From: Methanomicrobia archaeon
GTDB lineage: Archaea; Methanobacteriota_B; Thermococci; Methanofastidiosales; NM3
Direction: 5' to 3'
DNA length: 64,000 nucleotides
Assembly (NCBI GenBank): GCA_030603445.1
Contig: JAUVXU010000008.1
Location: 16,770-80,769, forward strand
Positions 55,207 to 64,000 of this stretch are shown here, piece after piece. The position numbers and the translations under genes are program-made. How positions within the stretch are numbered: the first letter of the stretch is position 1; the number at the start of each line of letters is the position of its first letter. The notes beneath the pieces were generated by a model. That model ran no database searches. It worked only from the letters and a program-made list of their open reading frames with translations, and was not told where the DNA came from.

Positions 55207-57054
55207 TTGCAACTAATCCGTTATATTGATAATATGTCAACAAAAGATAAAAAATCAATAGGTGTAATGATAATCTTATTCTTATTGATACTTCTTCCTC
55301 TAATTATTCCTAGTGAGTATGTAAAAATATATGAAGACGCGTTGACATTATTCTTGCCTACTTTCGCTTTTGCCGTAGGATTCATTGTCTTAAACGCATA
55401 TATAAAAAAAGAAATGAAAGTATTGTTTAGCCTTCTAACATTAGCCCCCCTTATGTGGGCAATAGCGGAGTTTATGCGGTGGATTATAAATAAAGAAGGA
55501 GAATTTATTGCATACTCTCTATCCTTTGATTTGTTCTACACCATAGGCTTTATGTTTGTATTAAGTGCCCTTATCTATCATTACTATAAACAACCTGAAA
55601 AGCAATTAATTAAGCATACGATAATCACAATAACACTTGTAGGGGCATTTGCTGGAGTACTTGCATACTACCTTTTTGTTTTTAAATCATTCTCCTTTAA
55701 CGATTCAACGGTGCAGATAACATTAGCATATTTTGCTATAGATATATTCATACTCCTTTTTTCATTGCTTAATCTAGAACTTAATATCAAGAAAAGCACT
55801 TTCTCATTCTGGGTATGGATTGTTGCTTTTATTCTATTTACAATAGTGGGGGATTTAATATATGGTATAGGAGTATTAGACCTCACATACGCCCCCAATG
55901 GAATCTCTGATATACTGTTTAACTTCTCATATGGGTGCATTGTTATGGCTTTTCTTTTCAGTACTGGAGCAAAGTCTGCTAAGATAAAAGATGTAGAGGA
56001 ACGATACCTAACAATTTTCAATTACAGCGGTGCAGCAACGGTAATGGCTGATGAACACAACACAATCCTACTAGCCAACAATCAATTTATGGCTCTCACA
56101 AATTACCCTAAAGAAGAAATAATTGGTATAATGCACTGGCCAGATATAGTAGACGCCAAAGAAAGGAAATCTATACTACTCATGCTTAACAGGATGAAAA
56201 ATGTCGAGAGCACCAAACCCTTAACTAAAGACATTAAACTATATACAAAAAAAGGAAATGCCCTTTATTGTAACATTATTTTTAGTTTCATACCCCATAC
56301 CGATATTAAGGTTATAACAGTGGTTGATATAACAGAACGAAAGAAGCTCGAGGTTGAACTTAAAAAAATAAACGAAGATCTACAAAACTTCACCTTTACA
56401 GTTTCACACGATCTAAAAGAACCACTGCGCAATATATCTTCTCTCGCAACGTATCTTAAACGTGATTATGAAGATAAAATAGATGAAATGGGTGTGGAAT
56501 TCTTAAACACACTAGTATATTCAGTATCTACTATGTCAAAACTTGTCGAAGATCTCCTAACGCTTTCTAGAATCGGGAGGAAGAATGCAAATTTCAGTTT
56601 TGTGGAGCTTAATGAACTTATTGAAGAAATATTGCACGATCTAAGCAAAACTATTGAAGAAAAAAATGTTGTTATCAACTATGAAAAACTCCCCAAAGCA
56701 ATGGTACAGAAAACCTGGATGAAACAAGTATTCCAAAACCTTATAACAAATGCAATGAAGTTCAATGATTCTAAACAGCCAACAATAGATATTACTTGTA
56801 AAGATTTCGATTTTTATTATGAATTCATAGTAAAGGACAATGGAATAGGGATACAGGATAACTACAAGGAACGTATCTTCAAACTGTTCGAACAGTTGCA
56901 CCCCCGTGAAAGTTATGGTGGTACAGGCGCCGGACTCGCAATTGTAAAGAAAATTATTAAAGAGCATAAGGGGGATATTTGGGTAGAGGGAAAAGAAGGG
57001 GAGGGATCCACTTTCCACTTTACTATTGAAAAATTCTTTATTGGTGAACTGTGA
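55207..57054 (+). CDS. sensor histidine kinase (polytopic N-terminal membrane domain, PAS, HisKA, HATPase)
   Basis: Six to seven TM helices; H-box VSHDLKEPLRNI; N/G1/G2 ATP-lid motifs (GGTGAGLAIVKK). Confidence 0.85.
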   Translation: MQLIRYIDNMSTKDKKSIGVMIILFLLILLPLIIPSEYVKIYEDALTLFLPTFAFAVGFIVLNAYIKKEMKVLFSLLTLAPLMWAIAEFMRWIINKEGEFIAYSLSFDLFYTIGFMFVLSALIYHYYKQPEKQLIKHTIITITLVGAFAGVLAYYLFVFKSFSFNDSTVQITLAYFAIDIFILLFSLLNLELNIKKSTFSFWVWIVAFILFTIVGDLIYGIGVLDLTYAPNGISDILFNFSYGCIVMAFLFSTGAKSAKIKDVEERYLTIFNYSGAATVMADEHNTILLANNQFMALTNYPKEEIIGIMHWPDIVDAKERKSILLMLNRMKNVESTKPLTKDIKLYTKKGNALYCNIIFSFIPHTDIKVITVVDITERKKLEVELKKINEDLQNFTFTVSHDLKEPLRNISSLATYLKRDYEDKIDEMGVEFLNTLVYSVSTMSKLVEDLLTLSRIGRKNANFSFVELNELIEEILHDLSKTIEEKNVVINYEKLPKAMVQKTWMKQVFQNLITNAMKFNDSKQPTIDITCKDFDFYYEFIVKDNGIGIQDNYKERIFKLFEQLHPRESYGGTGAGLAIVKKIIKEHKGDIWVEGKEGEGSTFHFTIEKFFIGEL

Positions 57055-57482
57055 TGCCAAGAGAAGGGATTCTTATCATAGACGACAATGTGACAGACGG
57101 ATTTGTCATTAAAAGAACTTTATCATCTTTAACGCATGAAGAAATTACGATAGCACGCAATGGATTAGAAGCACTCTCGTTCTTTTCCCAAAGACTCAAA
57201 GGTGAAGAAGGAAGTGCCTTGCCGAGATTAATTACACTAGATCTCAATATGCCTAAGATGAATGGTTTTGAAGTTCTTGAACGCATTAAAAAAAACTCAC
57301 AAACCAAAGATATCCCTATTATCATACTAACATCATCACAACTATCTGAAGAAGTAAAGCGCTCATACTATCTCGGGGCAAATAGCTATATTGTAAAACC
57401 TACAGATCATGATGAATTTGAAAAAATAATAGGATATATGTATAATTACTGGTTTGTATTCTCAAAAATACCATTGGAATGA
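57051..57482 (+). CDS. response regulator, stand-alone receiver (CheY-like)
   Basis: DD...D...K receiver residues (IIDDN, LDLNMP); ATGA overlap with the HK gene. Confidence 0.85.
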   Translation: MMPREGILIIDDNVTDGFVIKRTLSSLTHEEITIARNGLEALSFFSQRLKGEEGSALPRLITLDLNMPKMNGFEVLERIKKNSQTKDIPIIILTSSQLSEEVKRSYYLGANSYIVKPTDHDEFEKIIGYMYNYWFVFSKIPLE

Positions 57483-58168
57483 GAAATATGGAAAAAGAAA
57501 ACAACGAAGGCCCACGAATACTATATGTAGAAGATAATAGTACAGATGTTTTAATAATGAAAAGATTGCTTGAGGGCATTTTTCCCCAGGGATACGAACT
57601 AACAAATACACCTATTGGGTCAACAGGTATGTCCAAAGTAAAAAACGAATACTATGACTTTGTTATTCTTGACTATAAATTGCCTCGTATGACGGGACTA
57701 GAAATATTAGAACAAATGAAAAAAGAGAGTATAGATATACCTGTTATTTTTGTTACGGGACAAGGCGATGATGAGATAGCTGTCAAAGCACTTAAGATGG
57801 GTGCATATGATTACTTAATAAAAGGAAATCTTGATTCAAAGGAATCCAAACTCTCCATTCTAGAATTATGGAACCTTATTACTTATATGAAAAGGGACAC
57901 CGGCGCGGACCTTCTATCCAGCCTTACCCAGAAAAGAACAACTTTTGATGTTATCTCCGACATACTGCAAAACTCACTTTATGGTATTGGGAAAACGACA
58001 CTTGTCTTCAAATCGAACATGAACTTTAAACGAATAGAAAAATATTTAGCATTCCTTATAGCAAAAGGATTTCTACATCACGACCCCGATGAACAATACA
58101 CAACAACAGAAGATGGGAAAAAACTTATAAAAGCGATAATTGAGCTAAAAGCGCTTTTGAATAAATAA
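57479..58168 (+). CDS. response regulator with C-terminal winged-helix-like domain
   Basis: Receiver (LYVEDN, LDYKLP) plus about 100-aa C-terminal domain; overlaps the previous gene. Confidence 0.8.
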   Translation: MRNMEKENNEGPRILYVEDNSTDVLIMKRLLEGIFPQGYELTNTPIGSTGMSKVKNEYYDFVILDYKLPRMTGLEILEQMKKESIDIPVIFVTGQGDDEIAVKALKMGAYDYLIKGNLDSKESKLSILELWNLITYMKRDTGADLLSSLTQKRTTFDVISDILQNSLYGIGKTTLVFKSNMNFKRIEKYLAFLIAKGFLHHDPDEQYTTTEDGKKLIKAIIELKALLNK

Positions 58169-58252
58169 AAAATCTGCTTTTTTCCCTTGACTAAATATCA
58201 TTCAAAAATAATCATTGCAAACCATATGAAGATACGTAATAAAAAAAGTGGT

Positions 58253-58436
58253 GGGGACGGCGGGATTCGAACCCGAGTCCACGGGTTTCTCCGATTTCGC
58301 ACTGTTTTGTGCGCGCTCCATAAATTCTTCATCCGCAAGCTTTTGATATGCGTCTGTAAACCCGTAGTATTAATCTATTTATCTCTGGAGCCCATGATGA
58401 TAGGCCTCTACACTACGTCCCCTTGTACAAAAATAA
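58253..58436 (-). tRNA. intron-containing tRNA gene (probably two introns; anticodon tentatively TAC/Val)
   Basis: Reverse complement has 5' GGGGACG-TA-GTGT and 3' ...TCGGG-TTCGAAT-CCCGC-CGTCCCC-A-CCA, a 7/7 acceptor pairing. D-stem GTGT/ATAC and anticodon stem ACGGG/CCCGT are separated by insertions of about 30 and about 67 nt. Confidence 0.5.
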
Positions 58437-58465: not shown

Positions 58466-59416
58466 TCATATGCAAAGTCTTCCCGGGACTTTAGGAAATG
58501 GCGCCGCATCCTCGATTCTTTTGAAACCACATATATAGCGAACTAACCTTTCAATACCTATGCCAAACCCTGCTGATGGAACTAAACCCCTAGAAGCCAT
58601 CTCAAGAAGAATAGAATAATCCTCCACATCTTGTTTCTTTTTGTTTATCCTATCTACAATTCTATCATGAGAGTACTCTCTCTCCCCGCCAGATAATGCT
58701 TCACCAAATCCTTCAGGATATATTAAATCCATATCTAACAATATGCCTGGTTGTTCTGGATCTTCTTTATCATAGAATTCTCTAGCGTCAAGAGGGATAT
58801 CTATTAACCAGATAGGCTCATCATTATCGATAGATAAAGCGTCCTCAAAATCTGAACCATATTGTGCTTCTGCATCCAAATAACTAATTTTTTTGAATGG
58901 TGCACGAGGTGTTTTCAAATTACGTCCTAGTTCCTTTAGCTCATTTTGCAAATGCTCATTGCAATACTGCATAAGTCCAACATGCATGCGCTCCATTAAG
59001 CCCATGACATCTTCGCGTGTTGCATCTTTTACTTCAAGATCTAATTGGGTAAACTCAAATAGATGTCTTCCACTATCTGCTTTTTCCTCGCATTCAAAAC
59101 GAAGGTTTGGCGAAAAGCAGAATATTTTTGAATTAGCCAATAAAGCTAACTGTTTATGGAATATCATCGACTTTGTAAGCTGGTATTGATGCCCATAACA
59201 TGATAGAACCGGATCTAAGGTAGGATGGTTCAAAGGATCTGTTATGGGGGATAAGATAACAGGGGGAATTTCGATAAAGTTCTCCTCAAACAAAAAATTT
59301 CCCAGATATCTTCGTGCGTATGTGTGAACTTTTAAAGCGATGCCCATATTTTTTGAAGAAAGCCTTGTATAATAGTATTCAGAGGCTTTTTCTGTAAATT
59401 CATTGATTGTTATCAT
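58466..59416 (-). CDS. asnA: AsnRS-like asparagine synthetase A (class II aaRS catalytic core without anticodon-binding domain)
   Basis: Motif 2-like FECEEK...FTQLDLE and motif 3 GFGIGIERLV; only 316 aa. Confidence 0.6.
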   Translation of the reverse strand: MITINEFTEKASEYYYTRLSSKNMGIALKVHTYARRYLGNFLFEENFIEIPPVILSPITDPLNHPTLDPVLSCYGHQYQLTKSMIFHKQLALLANSKIFCFSPNLRFECEEKADSGRHLFEFTQLDLEVKDATREDVMGLMERMHVGLMQYCNEHLQNELKELGRNLKTPRAPFKKISYLDAEAQYGSDFEDALSIDNDEPIWLIDIPLDAREFYDKEDPEQPGILLDMDLIYPEGFGEALSGGEREYSHDRIVDRINKKKQDVEDYSILLEMASRGLVPSAGFGIGIERLVRYICGFKRIEDAAPFPKVPGRLCI

Positions 59417-59520: not shown

Positions 59521-59973
59521 ATGGAAACAAAACTATACGACGAAAAGGATTTAAGAATACTTGAAGCGCTAAAAAAAGATGGCAGGAAACCAACTTCAAA
59601 ACTTTCTAAGGAACTTGGAATACCAAGAGTGACCATACACCAACGCATAAACAAGATGATTGCAAATGGAATTATAAAAAAATTCACTGTGCGACCAGAC
59701 TATACAAAACTCAAAAAACCTGTAACTGCATTCGTACTCATTTCATTTATATCTAATCCCAAAGTAAGCCAAAGAGAGCTTGCATCAAAAATAGCCTTAA
59801 TGGGTGGCGTAGAAGAATTATTCATAATATCTGGTGAATGGGACTTAATATTAAAGGTCAGGGCCAAATCTGCAGAAGATGTAGGGTCATTGATAATAGA
59901 CAAATTACGAACCTTTGAGGGTGTAGGAAAAGCAACAACCTGTATAAGCTTTAGTGCTGTAAAGGAAGAATAA
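59521..59973 (+). CDS. Lrp/AsnC-family transcriptional regulator
   Basis: N-terminal HTH (DLRILEALKKDGRKPTSKLSKELGIPRVTIHQRINKM) plus RAM domain. Confidence 0.85.
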   Translation: METKLYDEKDLRILEALKKDGRKPTSKLSKELGIPRVTIHQRINKMIANGIIKKFTVRPDYTKLKKPVTAFVLISFISNPKVSQRELASKIALMGGVEELFIISGEWDLILKVRAKSAEDVGSLIIDKLRTFEGVGKATTCISFSAVKEE

Positions 59974-59982
59974 CAAAACAAT

Positions 59983-61002
59983 TTATTTTTCTTTTTCATT
60001 TTCTTTTGAATCTTCTGTTTTTATTATTGTGTGATAATATACATTCTTTCCATCTAATATGAAGTATATCTCCTTATTTTGATCCAAAATAACTCTTTTC
60101 CTATAGTCAATAGCTATGTCCACTAAATCCTTTAGTTCAGGTATGAATATCTCTTTGTCCCACTTCCCTTTAGGATATGTTCCAATGCTAATCCAATCGT
60201 GGAATTTTTTATCTTCATCTTTACTTCCTTTGGTGTAGATGAAAAATCCAACGAGAACTATAACACAAGCCACGATAACTCCAATAGGGATAAGTAAATC
60301 ATTGAAAGTTTTCCTTCGTTCAATGATTTGTGACGTGAAATAGCTTTTTGTTGTTGGTGTAGGATTCTGTGAAACATCAAATGCATAGTAGTCGTTTCCA
60401 AAAACTACGGGTAATTCATATATCTCCCTCCCCTCAAAAGGAGTAGAGGAAATGGAACCCTGGTAATCTACGCTCGTAATTATAACGCCATTACTTCGTC
60501 CAACAGACCTGCCAACGCTATCTGCTATTTCCTCGATTTTATCTCTTATGTCCCATGCATTTAATGTGAATGAGTCTGACATCTCCCATTTAGTTATATC
60601 AAAATGCTCCTTTGAGGAAAGGAAATATTTTTTCTCCCAAAATGGTATTCCATTTTCATTCGTCTCTGATAGTATGAGTTCTGTCTTAGTTGTGAAGAAT
60701 ATTGTTGCGTCAGATGTTGTGGGTTCAAACTCAAAGATAAATGAGATTGTTGAAATTGGAGATATTGTGTAAAAATAACCCGCCATAGAGGAGAGCTGTG
60801 TTCCTAAAGGGTAAAGCGGATTGTCCTCCTGAACTGTAGAGTATTGCTCATAACACCCATTGTACGAGAAAGCATAATCCAATACATTCTGATGTTCAGT
60901 GATGGGTTTAGTGTATTCTAGATAGGTCCACGCAAACGATGCTATTAAAGCAATTATTATAATTACAACAAAAGTCACGCCCTTATTATTCATATTATTC
61001 AC
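59983..61002 (-). CDS. hypothetical membrane protein (TM near N-terminus and near C-terminal third)
   Basis: 339-aa ORF directly downstream of the sipW-like gene. Confidence 0.45.
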   Translation of the reverse strand: MNNMNNKGVTFVVIIIIALIASFAWTYLEYTKPITEHQNVLDYAFSYNGCYEQYSTVQEDNPLYPLGTQLSSMAGYFYTISPISTISFIFEFEPTTSDATIFFTTKTELILSETNENGIPFWEKKYFLSSKEHFDITKWEMSDSFTLNAWDIRDKIEEIADSVGRSVGRSNGVIITSVDYQGSISSTPFEGREIYELPVVFGNDYYAFDVSQNPTPTTKSYFTSQIIERRKTFNDLLIPIGVIVACVIVLVGFFIYTKGSKDEDKKFHDWISIGTYPKGKWDKEIFIPELKDLVDIAIDYRKRVILDQNKEIYFILDGKNVYYHTIIKTEDSKENEKEK

Positions 61003-61030
61003 CTTTAATACATATACATAAATTATGTTA

Positions 61031-62170
61031 TTAAATATTACTTGGTTTATTATGGCCTTTTGAAGGCTTTCTTTCTATTAATTTCATTTCATTTCTTAAT
61101 GTCACGAAAATTGGGATTGATAACACCAAAGCCAATAAATCCATTATAACTATAGGAAGATATTTGCTTTGTTCTCGTAATGTTGTTGTGGTATTGTACG
61201 GGAGTATGCCCATATATACATCCATAGAAATATATTCTTGGTAGTATCCTGAGGTCATCGGTGCTGTTACTTCGTACGCCACCCTTCTTGTCTCGCCATT
61301 ACGTAGTGTAAATGATGTAGTGGAAAGGCTTATAATAGAATCCCTGCCTTGTACAAAAACATGTATGGGCAGAAAACCTCTATTCTTTATATCTAAAAAC
61401 TGTTCAACAGTATCACCCAAATGCACTGCGCGAGTATTTGTAATTCCTTCAGTAGCTATTAGGTCCACTTTGTTAGATTGCGACATTGACATCATAGAAA
61501 CTGTTGTAGCAAATACTATGAAAATAATAAAAAACAAATATATTGCATATTGTGATTTAGCCACATTCTTAACTTCTCTGTTGTACTTTGATTCCTTCTT
61601 TTTCAATGAGAACAAATCTGTAACAATGGCTATAAACGACAACAAGCCAAAGCCGACAATTAGTTGTCCTAATCTATCACTACCAGGACTAACACCAATA
61701 AACAAAAATAATTTTGTGGCGAGTGAAGAAAGAAAATTTGAAAGAGAAAATATAATCGTTCCAAAGTAGGGAATAGTCACAATATTGCCATTGAACTGCA
61801 ACACTTTTCCTACGATCTGTTCACGTTTTACATAAGGTTCAGCATACGTCCCGCCTTGATCTGTGAACGTATTTTTATCCCCTTGTGTTATGAAACCTTG
61901 GGGCGTCTCGCCAACAATGCGATGCGTGAGAAATTTATATGGGTAATTTTCCGCATTGAATACAACAACATCTCCAACAGAGAACGAAGACACAAACTGC
62001 GAAGGGACTATAAAGAACCCGTCTCCCTCTTTTAGTTGTGGTTCCATTGATGATGTCTCTACATAAGATATACCAACAGGATACTGTAATAAGCCGCTAG
62101 CAATTACTGGAAAGAAGAAAAGAAGCAAAAGAACGTAAGCTAAGTCTTGTGCTGTCGAAGCTGCTTTCAT
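61031..62170 (-). CDS. sipW: signal peptidase I (SipW/Sec11-type, Ser-His) with C-terminal extension
   Basis: Box B SSMEP, box C GDVVVF, box D THRIVG, box E GDKNTFTDQG; N-terminal TM. Confidence 0.7.
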   Translation of the reverse strand: MKAASTAQDLAYVLLLLFFFPVIASGLLQYPVGISYVETSSMEPQLKEGDGFFIVPSQFVSSFSVGDVVVFNAENYPYKFLTHRIVGETPQGFITQGDKNTFTDQGGTYAEPYVKREQIVGKVLQFNGNIVTIPYFGTIIFSLSNFLSSLATKLFLFIGVSPGSDRLGQLIVGFGLLSFIAIVTDLFSLKKKESKYNREVKNVAKSQYAIYLFFIIFIVFATTVSMMSMSQSNKVDLIATEGITNTRAVHLGDTVEQFLDIKNRGFLPIHVFVQGRDSIISLSTTSFTLRNGETRRVAYEVTAPMTSGYYQEYISMDVYMGILPYNTTTTLREQSKYLPIVIMDLLALVLSIPIFVTLRNEMKLIERKPSKGHNKPSNI

Positions 62171-62182
62171 ATTTGCACCCGC

Positions 62183-63109
62183 TTAATAATATTCCCAAAT
62201 AATTACTTCTTCGTAATTTCCTTTAATCTTTGCGTACCATTTAAGGGTATATACATCTAGATAGATGTATTGATTTTTATGAGTTGTGTAAAGGGTGTTA
62301 TCCAAAGCCTTTACTTTAATAGTTCCTGTTTTAGGGGATAATTGAATAGCGGATACTTTTTCTGAACTTGTTAATTTTATTAGATCATATTTGTATGTGT
62401 AGCCGTTTATCGTTTTATTCCATATTTTTGGATCAAGCCCCATGTCTGTATAATTATAATCTCCCCATGTGCGGATTTTTACTCCGTTTGAAAGCGCATC
62501 ATACGCAACTCCCCTTATAAACTCAGCGTTTTCTGGCATAGTATTGTCATTAGGATCATACCCTTCAGGAGATTCGTATTCTTCTATTAATATTTCAGCA
62601 GTTCTTGTAAGTGTTATGAATGGGGTGCCCTCTGCGTTAGAAGCAACGATATCAATGACACTGATAAGTGACTCATCGCTAGTGATATCTATTGCATCTA
62701 TAAAAACATCCACAGTAATAACATTGCCTACAGGTATTGTGATGCCTCCGGTTTCCAGATTGCTCAAGCTAGATGTGAAAGTTACATTGTCCGGATAATT
62801 GCCATCATCAAATATCTTTACAAAAATAGTCTCATTTAAGTCATTCTCTATTTTAAAAATACTTTGTATTTCAACTTTTTCTCCCTGTGGCACATCAAGA
62901 ATATGAAGCTCAAATGCACCATTATTATCTGAATCATGAAAATATTCTGGGTTCTCAGTTGTTGGATAAAGAGATACAACTCCTGACGTATCATCTACCA
63001 ATTGTAATGAAACATCGCGCTCAATAGATAATGTAGTATAGGCGCCTGAACTTATGATTATCATTATTAAAGCCAGCATAGAAAAACCGGCCAATACATA
63101 TCCTTTCAT
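62183..63109 (-). CDS. secreted protein with SipW-cognate-type signal peptide (TasA/camelysin-like)
   Basis: N-terminus MKGYVLAGFSMLALIMIIISSGAYTTLSIERDVSLQLVDD, matching the hydrophobic stretch / G-A-[FY]-T / D-R pattern of TasA-class substrates. Confidence 0.55.
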   Translation of the reverse strand: MKGYVLAGFSMLALIMIIISSGAYTTLSIERDVSLQLVDDTSGVVSLYPTTENPEYFHDSDNNGAFELHILDVPQGEKVEIQSIFKIENDLNETIFVKIFDDGNYPDNVTFTSSLSNLETGGITIPVGNVITVDVFIDAIDITSDESLISVIDIVASNAEGTPFITLTRTAEILIEEYESPEGYDPNDNTMPENAEFIRGVAYDALSNGVKIRTWGDYNYTDMGLDPKIWNKTINGYTYKYDLIKLTSSEKVSAIQLSPKTGTIKVKALDNTLYTTHKNQYIYLDVYTLKWYAKIKGNYEEVIIWEYY

Positions 63110-63241
63110 ATAATCGACCTTACATTTTCTCTTTTTTCACTTTAATAAATATATGCTACATAATTTATATTATTGCATCGAATTGATAAAATTAAAAAGA
63201 TAATAAAATTGTAAAAGGGGGCAATACCCCTTTTTACAGTA

Positions 63242-63718
63242 TTATACTGCAGTGGCGTTTATGTTTATGCTTGTAAGCACGCTGTCTCCCTCGGAGAGGC
63301 CTTCTGTATCCATCTTCATTGATACTGACTGCATCTGTCCTGGAGCAAGGGTGAATGATGTAGTGCTTAGGCTAACGTTGCTTACAGCAGATTCCCCGTT
63401 AAATGGCAGAAGTGTAACAAGCACGTCCTGCGTGCCGTTGTTTGTTATTGTGAATAAATCCTCTATTAGTATTTCTGCATCGGCGTTGACGCCTTTTGCG
63501 ACGTTTCCTATATCGATGAAGAACTTGCCGGATTCATCGAATCCTGCATACTTTCCGTTTGGCCCTTCTGCAGGGTTTATCCCGAGGATAGCTGATGCGT
63601 CCCCGACGACGTTAATTGTTGCGCTACGATCCGCCGTAACGGATGTGAAGGCCCCGGTGGACATGACCAGAATGGCAGCCACAAGGATTCCGAAGAGAGG
63701 CAATAGTTTTTTCATCAT
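63242..63718 (-). CDS. small secreted protein with SipW-cognate-type signal peptide (TasA/camelysin-like)
   Basis: N-terminus MMKKLLPLFGILVAAILVMSTGAFTSVTADRSATINVVGD. Confidence 0.55.
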   Translation of the reverse strand: MMKKLLPLFGILVAAILVMSTGAFTSVTADRSATINVVGDASAILGINPAEGPNGKYAGFDESGKFFIDIGNVAKGVNADAEILIEDLFTITNNGTQDVLVTLLPFNGESAVSNVSLSTTSFTLAPGQMQSVSMKMDTEGLSEGDSVLTSININATAV

Positions 63719-63759
63719 GATTCATACACCTTTGAAGTGATATGAACTTAGTTGTCCTC

Positions 63760-63835
63760 TTTCCTTTAAAAAGGAAACGAACTTAAGGTAAGGAACAGTG
63801 TTCTTTTTTAACAAATCCCCCTTTAGGGGATTTGT
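63760..63835. promoter_or_regulatory. two perfect palindromes upstream of the TasA-like gene
   Basis: TTTCCTTTaaAAAGGAAA (63760-63777) and ACAAATCCCCctttaGGGGATTTGT (63811-63835), 45-115 nt upstream of the start at 63718. Confidence 0.25.
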
Positions 63836-64000
63836 ATTGTTATAAGCAGAATTCAAGCCTAATTCTTGCTTCTTTTATTAATTTCATAATAACATGTCCA
63901 AAATTCATATACTATCATATGCCTCAAGCAAAAAAGAGAATAATCCTATGTGTTGGATACGGCAACTACCTGGGAGTAAATAAGAAGGAAGGAAGCTTCG

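Follow-up and report, generated by a model that had tools for sequence, protein, structure and literature searches.

Gene content of the locus and its two secreted proteins

Towards the end of a 64-kb stretch of contig JAUVXU010000008.1 (the whole stretch analysed, hereafter the window), which belongs to a genome of Candidatus Methanofastidiosia, lies a cluster of four genes, all on the minus strand. An initial annotation, made from the sequence alone, had proposed a fibre or biofilm-matrix module consisting of two secreted proteins, a SipW-like signal peptidase and a membrane protein, and the coordinates of its four open reading frames (ORFs) were reproduced exactly. The genes, named here A, B, the peptidase gene and the DUF5305 gene, are as follows.

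63242-63718, minus strand: protein A, 158 amino acids, predicted TafE/DUF1102-family pilin
62183-63109, minus strand: protein B, 308 amino acids, two-domain pilin-like protein
61031-62170, minus strand: signal peptidase, 379 amino acids, most likely a TafD-type signal peptidase I
59983-61002, minus strand: DUF5305/TafG-like protein, 339 amino acids, the former "membrane protein"

The last three are tightly packed, with gaps from stop to start of 12 nt between B and the peptidase gene and 28 nt between the peptidase and DUF5305 genes, whereas A is set apart from B by a spacer of 132 bp with an A+T content of 77%. We read the cluster as a Sec-dependent, Tafi-like (TafE/DUF1102-family) donor-strand pilus module, a reading to which we assign a probability of about 0.78. 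Systems of this kind, Sec-dependent versions included, were already published between 2023 and 2025 (PMC11821415, PMC12337348).

Protein A begins with a Sec-type leader (residues 1-23, 63650-63718; MMKKLLPLFG..., no RR). Cleavage is predicted between TGA and F, which would leave a mature protein of 135 residues (F24-V158) whose N-terminal stretch, FTSVTADRSATINVVGD, is the predicted donor strand; there is no cysteine, C-terminal anchor, transmembrane segment at the C-terminus or sorting signal, and three N-x-S/T sequons are present. When A alone was searched against all PDB sequences, a single match was found at E<=10, namely the Natrinema sp. J7-2 Tafi pilin 9p0a_C (E=1.5e-6), and the profile of the A family, which comprises A and 26 homologues, retrieved 9p0a at 4.4e-25, with TasA chains absent at E<=10. 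The NCBIfam model TafE matches A at 5.5e-11 and all 27 sequences of the family, while TafC and TafA match 23 and 17 of them, respectively. The motif TGAFT..A.R..D is invariant throughout (G22, A23, F24, T25, A29, R31, D40). Leaders in the family are twin-arginine (Tat) signals of the RRKF type in the haloarchaeal members versus KK-type Sec leaders in the clade of the window, and such switching between Tat and Sec has been described before (PMC12337348).

The order of elements reported at the N-termini of both secreted proteins also held, with a hydrophobic segment followed by STGA-FTSVTADR in A and by SSGA-YTTLSIERD in B. In a six-frame translation of the window the motif occurs in a post-hydrophobic context only in these two proteins, and they alone match the pilin hidden Markov model (HMM) there (4.6e-61 for A and 4.5e-22 for B). 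The proposal of an archaeal fibre module is thus sustained by the homology of the secreted proteins to a solved archaeal donor-strand pilin, and so is the analogy with the bacterial tapA-sipW-tasA operon, in that two secreted proteins with a common, conserved post-leader motif are encoded next to a peptidase of the dedicated type.

The specific placement of these proteins in the TasA/camelysin class did not survive. A true TasA/camelysin (Peptidase_M73)-SipW-TapA operon, orthologous to the Bacillus system, would have the operon logic and the endoplasmic reticulum (ER)-type peptidase seen here, and in one preprint an HHpred analysis assigns Tafi to a wider "TasA superfamily" (bioRxiv 10.64898/2026.01.04.697558). 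Against this, neither A nor B matched Pfam Peptidase_M73 or DUF1102 (PF06510) at E<=1, none of the 27 family members matched Peptidase_M73 at that threshold, the profile search of the PDB returned no TasA chain, and the peptidase scores 30.9 bits against the SipW equivalog NF046067, for which the cutoff is 190, with no TIGR04088-type match listed. We regard such an operon as barely credible: orthology with TasA/camelysin is refuted at the family level, and at most a remote superfamily relationship is possible. Of the two families that had been named for comparison, Peptidase_M73 therefore drew a blank, whereas DUF1102, unmatched by A and B themselves, was matched by 6 of the 27 A-family members (best 6.3e-6; two carry the NCBI name DUF1102), so that, on these profile scores, the family is peripheral to or overlapping with DUF1102. 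Judged by sequence comparison, the proper labels are Tafi/TafE-DUF1102 with TafD and TafG, instead of TasA/camelysin with SipW.

Structure prediction gave a compatible picture of A. Its AlphaFold2 (AF2) model is a beta-sandwich (mean predicted local distance difference test score, pLDDT, 75), in which residues 22-42 are poorly placed and of low confidence, as expected if the donor strand were completed only in the polymer. The best full-length TM-scores in Foldseek were those of 9p0a (0.53), the Pyrobaculum archaeal bundling pilus (ABP) pilin 7ueg (0.50) and FimA (0.47).

The likely site of maturation can be read from the characterised relatives. The mature N-terminus of Haloarcula TafA is Phe-30 by mass spectrometry, which differs from the site predicted by SignalP (PMC11821415), and the Natrinema filament model 9p0a starts at F28 (PMC12337348). 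In the profile alignment F28 is the residue right after TGA and aligns with F24 of A; we accordingly predict, from the alignment, that A would mature at F24 and B at Y24. Within the next 15 residues hydrophobic side chains alternate (A33/I35/V37 in A, V33/L35/L37 in B), a pattern like that described for the donated strand of TafE. Archaeal type IV pilins were considered as an identity for these proteins and rejected: a type IV pilin leader (class III, short and charged) is cut by PibD/FlaK before the hydrophobic segment, which is excluded here by a hydrophobic segment that precedes the cleavage motif. In place of the PilB/PilC-type ATPase and platform that would be expected nearby, the surroundings contain asnC, asnA, the genes of two response regulators and that of a histidine kinase.

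Protein B also carries a leader without RR (residues 1-23, MKGYVLAGFS...; predicted cleavage between SGA and Y24) and contains no cysteines and no sorting signal. Its residues 1-160 align with the full length of the pilin HMM (7e-24) and include the motif SGAYTTLSIERD. The remainder of the protein is a separate domain.

62186-62617, minus strand: C-terminal domain of B (residues 165-308), lineage-restricted, aromatic-rich, with no C-terminal transmembrane segment

No known fold or family was found for this domain, and an exhaustive phmmer search against 1.84 billion representatives returned two B-like proteins only, plus one match to a repeat protein of 5,189 amino acids. The latter was judged to be no evidence of homology, since it is a sum of weak matches at 25% identity over 12 repeats. 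By analogy with TafC and with Bacillus TapA, we propose that B is a low-copy tip or nucleator subunit whose C-terminal domain is probably adhesive, while A is the probable major fibre subunit that would form the repeating shaft.

Probable processing enzymes and conservation of the gene set

The boxes reported for the signal peptidase were confirmed (SSMEP at residues 40-44, GDVVVF at 66-71, THRIVG at 82-87, GDKN at 97-100), and S41, H83, D98, N100 and D104 are invariant across 18 homologues. Its profile matches human SEC11A/C in the PDB, which makes it a Ser/His enzyme of the ER, Sec11 and SipW type, and it passes TIGR02228 (61.8 bits, cutoff 51.85). The description of the enzyme as SipW-like thus stands for the class and fails, on the score given above, for the SipW equivalog. 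Four transmembrane segments (residues 5-34, 165-190, 202-231 and 335-360) separate two extracytoplasmic parts.

~61766-62068, minus strand: extracytoplasmic catalytic domain of the peptidase, with Ser41 and His83
61169-61477, minus strand: second conserved extracytoplasmic domain of the peptidase (residues ~232-334), with a T-A-P-x3-G-Y-Y motif

This two-domain architecture with four transmembrane segments is the one reported for TafD (PMC11821415), and identities with haloarchaeal homologues are 28-34% along the entire protein. The adjacent membrane protein is now identified as a member of DUF5305 (PF17231; 1.3e-30, 106.9 bits versus a cutoff of 29), and it has a transmembrane segment at residues 3-31, an ectodomain of ~200 residues, a second transmembrane segment at 231-261 and a cytoplasmic C-terminal domain. 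DUF5305/TafG has been proposed as an accessory subunit of signal peptidase I (PMC11821415; bioRxiv 10.64898/2026.01.04.697558), and by analogy we propose the same role for the protein in the window.

The window encodes no second signal peptidase I, no TafF-like anchor and no second small pilin. The first of these absences, together with the pass of the generic model TIGR02228 by the catalytic domain, would suit a housekeeping archaeal Sec11 peptidase that happens to lie beside two unrelated secreted proteins. We consider this very unlikely, however, since the four transmembrane segments and the conserved extra extracellular domain are common to haloarchaeal TafD homologues, both neighbouring substrates share the invariant cleavage motif, the linkage to pilin-like and DUF5305 genes is conserved in 57-69 of 81 loci (see below), and deletion of tafD in Haloarcula is viable and blocks only the processing of TafA (PMC11821415). 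In that organism the deletion blocks fibre formation along with TafA processing (PMC11821415). On its sequence relationships, the enzyme of the window is most likely a dedicated TafD-type signal peptidase I.

A scan of genomes with the peptidase alignment yielded 80 loci. Almost all are haloarchaeal, with full-length identities of 26-34%; together with a metagenome contig of the Joint Genome Institute (JGI; L001) they make 81 loci, many of them on short contigs. An ORF matching the pilin HMM was present in 63 of these, a DUF5305 ORF in 69 and both in 57, so that the combination of pilin-like protein, DUF5305 protein and peptidase recurs in related loci. In one of them, from Natrinema pallidum, a homologous peptidase-DUF5305 pair is preceded 1.4 kb upstream by an ORF that shares 89% identity with the 9p0a pilin, an arrangement that ties the enzymes of the window to an experimentally characterised locus type.

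Closer relatives of the window show a core and a more variable part. L001 is 89-92% identical and has the same synteny, with A directly upstream of B there too, although the contig is cut inside gene A (the fragment is L001 1-102). The nearest locus in a species-representative genome is that of a Methanofastidiosia metagenome-assembled genome (L002; 54% peptidase identity), and in this locus and three others (L087, L088 and L089), in all of which peptidase identity is 51-54% and the flanking synteny is unchanged, genes for a B-like protein, the peptidase and DUF5305 occur with no small pilin in the locus.

The base composition of gene A also sets it apart. Its G+C content (GC) is 0.48 and its GC at third codon positions (GC3) is 0.50, versus a GC3 of 0.336 +/- 0.031 (maximum 0.42) for the long ORFs of the window, and the fragment of A in L001 is GC-rich as well. 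The closest homologues of A (47-53% identity) come from pilin genes that stand alone or in tandem; their genomes have a GC of 52-61%, and there the genes are no outliers. Together with the loci that lack a small pilin, these observations suggest that A joined an ancestral B-peptidase-DUF5305 core at a later time, probably by horizontal transfer, in line with the frequent exchange noted for tafE (PMC12337348). An alternative explanation is a codon bias linked to expression; the ordinary composition of A-like genes in other genomes favours acquisition over expression alone, without proving it.

Some further observations were made on these relatives. In the Methanofastidiosia-like relatives L087 and L089 the gene order is the same as in the window: B-like, peptidase, DUF5305, asnC, asnA, two response regulators and a histidine kinase. 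The GC of L087 is ~56%, versus ~36-38% for the window and L001, at a protein identity of ~51%, which indicates a large shift in GC within the lineage. Tandem TafE-like pilin genes (L082 78-590 and 832-1383; 170 and 183 amino acids), both with STGAFTSVTADR, stand at the start of a 109-kb contig of an unclassified archaeon, with peptidase and DUF5305 genes absent from the following 7 kb; the second of these pilins ends in a GNGQGG repeat tail.

Candidate transcription signals, proposed assembly and relation to known pili

Gene A is preceded by a divergent intergenic region of ~200 bp (63719-63918), on the other side of which a plus-strand ORF starting at 63919 leaves the window. The two palindromes placed here by the initial annotation are both perfect, and they are listed with the other signals of the region and with those around the spacer between A and B.

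63811-63835: perfect inverted repeat ACAAATCCCC-N5-GGGGATTTGT, 10-nt arms and 5-nt spacer, ~93-117 nt upstream of the ATG of A
63760-63777: perfect AT-rich palindrome TTTCCTTT-AA-AAAGGAAA, 8-nt arms and 2-nt spacer
63727-63730, minus strand: GGTG Shine-Dalgarno-like element preceding gene A
63213-63234, minus strand: GC-rich hairpin AAAAGGGG-N6-CCCCTTTT directly past the stop codon of A, with a T-rich tract after it
63110-63241, minus strand: A-B intergenic region, 132 bp, 77% A+T, with TATA-like elements and an AGGT ribosome-binding site

The inverted repeat at 63811-63835 occurs once in the window, and none of 100 shuffles produced it, even when 3 mismatches were tolerated. It is a candidate operator for a dimeric regulator and is not needed as a terminator, because the flanking genes both diverge from it. 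The palindrome at 63760-63777 overlaps a TATA-like element (TTTTTAAA) ~50 nt upstream of the ATG of A and is statistically weak, as a match with <=2 mismatches turned up in 16 of 100 shuffles; gene A probably has its core promoter here, and a regulator site may overlap it. Both palindromes are plausible regulatory sites and are put forward as candidates only. The hairpin past the stop codon is terminator- or attenuator-like and would let the mRNA of the pilin exceed that of the downstream operon, and the A-B intergenic region is a probable separate promoter for the B-peptidase-DUF5305 operon.

In the pilus module that we propose, A and B would be exported unfolded via Sec by their ordinary class-I leaders. 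The TafD-type peptidase, probably together with the DUF5305 (TafG-type) protein, would then cut after the invariant T/S-G-A, so that A would begin with F24 and B with Y24. The amphipathic strand released at the N-terminus (A-T-I-N-V-V in A, V-S-L-Q-L-V in B) would enter the open beta-sandwich of a neighbouring subunit, and the result would be a non-covalent filament built without chaperone or usher. With its own putative promoter and the terminator-like hairpin, A would be the abundant subunit of the shaft, and B, presumably co-transcribed with the processing enzymes, would be the low-copy tip or nucleator. The product may be a thin adhesive or bundling fibre for attachment or aggregation.

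The haloarchaeal Tafi systems of Haloarcula hispanica and Natrinema sp. J7-2 (9p0a) share with the locus a homologous pilin with the TGA/F motif and an N-terminal donor strand, a homologous two-domain TafD with four transmembrane segments, a homologous DUF5305 protein (TafG), and a larger two-domain pilin-like protein (here B), which by its place and layout could correspond to the tip protein TafC. They differ in having Tat leaders, where Sec leaders (KK or K) are found here, and in having separate TafA and TafE, a TafF-type anchor and a membrane-bound TafB regulator, where the window has one small pilin and neither anchor nor membrane-bound regulator. Furthermore, the C-terminal domain of B is unrelated to the laminin-G-like domain of TafC, and the host is a low-salt anaerobic methanogen lineage. 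Sec-type leaders are also found in some haloarchaea (PMC11821415, PMC12337348).

The closest published match is provided by the Sec-type taf-like clusters of Thermococcales, Archaeoglobales and Sulfolobales (TSIB_1247-1254, AF_2076-2083, TK_1701-1707; PMC11821415, PMC12337348), which we compared by description only. These clusters likewise encode DUF1102/TafE-like pilins, a Sec-exported two-domain protein of ~300 amino acids, a TafD-like peptidase and a DUF5305 protein. They have, however, two to three small DUF1102 genes, one of them for a proposed TafF analogue, and in most cases also a small regulator, whereas the window has one small pilin, apparently a secondary addition.

More distant likenesses are seen with two other systems. 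In Bacillus subtilis the tapA-sipW-tasA operon also places the gene of a dedicated ER-type (Ser/His) peptidase between or beside the genes of a major donor-strand subunit and a larger nucleating or anchoring subunit, and its assembly too is chaperone-free; apart from the unmatched Peptidase_M73 and SipW models, the difference is that SipW has no second extracellular domain and no DUF5305 partner. The AbpX/AbpA bundling pili are likewise built from beta-sandwich subunits joined by donor strands, a signal peptidase I is encoded next to them, and abpX loci often include DUF5305 (bioRxiv 10.64898/2026.01.04.697558). 7ueg is among the best structural matches of A (TMq 0.50), but there is no sequence match to these pilins and the AbpX-associated peptidase has ten transmembrane helices versus four here.

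Several points weigh against the proposed pilus module. What was observed is the homology of its components, their topology, the conserved motif and the gene linkage; cleavage, strand donation, the roles of A and B and the biological function are inferred. A scores 42.5 bits against the NCBIfam Taf equivalog cutoff of 155, far below it, so that by sequence A is a distant relative or homologue of TafE without the status of an orthologue. The Foldseek E-values for A are weak (~5e-3), with generic Ig/PapD-like folds outranking the pilins, and the AF2 model of B, built on a three-sequence alignment, had a pLDDT of 49.7, was unusable and was kept out of the fold search. No TafF-like anchor or TafE-like adapter was found in the 64 kb of the window, so that the proposal lacks a component to hold the fibre on the cell, although an anchor gene may lie in another part of the genome. 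For some Sec-type homologues of TafE, assemblies that are not filaments have been predicted (PMC12337348), and the four relatives without a small pilin in the locus imply that the core module may not need a shaft subunit.

The last two of these points, together with the outlying GC3 of gene A, are what a non-filamentous surface adhesin would lead one to expect, in which the B-peptidase-DUF5305 core shows B on the surface as an adhesin or small oligomer and A is an unrelated later insertion that shares its leader type. We think this unlikely, because B retains the full donor-strand motif and a pilin domain, A lies directly upstream of B in both the window and L001, and A-like genes stand alone or in tandem elsewhere, so that the shaft genes of those four relatives could be unlinked.

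The same core may also be viewed as an ancestral minimal machine of three genes (B, the TafD-type peptidase and DUF5305) that had no separate anchor or shaft. In such a machine the conserved second extracellular domain of the peptidase or the DUF5305 ectodomain would be the membrane-bound acceptor of the last donor strand, and cleavage of the signal peptide would be mechanically coupled to assembly and anchoring of the fibre. The acquired A would have turned a short adhesin stalk into a long fibre, and the C-terminal domain of B would be a partner-specific adhesin for syntrophic aggregation of this methanogen, which depends obligately on hydrogen. We offer this as a speculative and rather unlikely variant, and retain the Sec-dependent Tafi-like pilus with A as its shaft as the preferred interpretation.

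Neighbouring genes and biological significance

Downstream of the DUF5305 gene, the following features were found on the side of the cluster away from gene A.

59521-59973, plus strand: asnC, an Lrp/AsnC-type regulator gene
58466-59416, minus strand: asnA, archaeal-type asparagine synthetase A gene (393 bits versus a cutoff of 309)
58249-58422, minus strand: tRNA-Trp(CCA) whose anticodon loop is interrupted by an intron of 98 nt; the 3' CCA is encoded
55207-58168: a PAS/HisKA histidine kinase with ~9 N-terminal transmembrane segments, then two response regulators

The first two genes diverge from a shared intergenic region of 104 bp, the pair is conserved in all relatives examined, and their divergence is a classical regulator-target arrangement. 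The Lrp/AsnC gene was considered as an analogue of the membrane-bound regulator TafB and rejected as unlikely, as its product has no transmembrane helices, it has a divergent partner in asnA and the neighbourhood is syntenic in relatives. The tRNA gene, between asnA and a response-regulator gene, was missed by default ARAGORN and by the Rfam gathering threshold; it appeared as a sub-threshold match of the tmRNA/tRNA clan and was confirmed by the intron mode of ARAGORN. Introns of euryarchaeal pre-tRNA-Trp often carry a box C/D guide RNA. An Sso10a-like winged-helix domain, which scores right at the cutoff (60.1 bits), forms the C-terminal part of one of the two response regulators. The histidine kinase/response-regulator block keeps its syntenic place in every relative; it lies 1.8 kb away from the proposed pilus module, and a regulatory link to the fibre genes is conceivable.

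Anaerobic digesters and sediments are home to the Methanofastidiosia, a group of uncultured methanogens, and we know of nothing reported on the surface structures of these archaea. No report of a Tafi-like system in this class was found in the literature searched, which was a non-exhaustive selection. Most likely, the locus represents a new host lineage for a known machine and involves no new mechanism; its newer points are modest and consist of the Methanofastidiosia lineage itself, the lack of a TafF-like anchor in the window, the near-orphan C-terminal domain of B and the apparently late, GC-rich addition of A.

With this locus, the Sec-dependent branch of the Tafi/TasA-superfamily pili gains a member in a further class of euryarchaea. 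To our knowledge, the roles of the second domain of TafD and of DUF5305 are still unknown even in the haloarchaeal model systems, and the stripped-down set found here, with one shaft pilin, one two-domain subunit, a peptidase and DUF5305, may help to define them. For Methanofastidiosia, it provides a concrete and testable candidate for the attachment of cells to partners or flocs.

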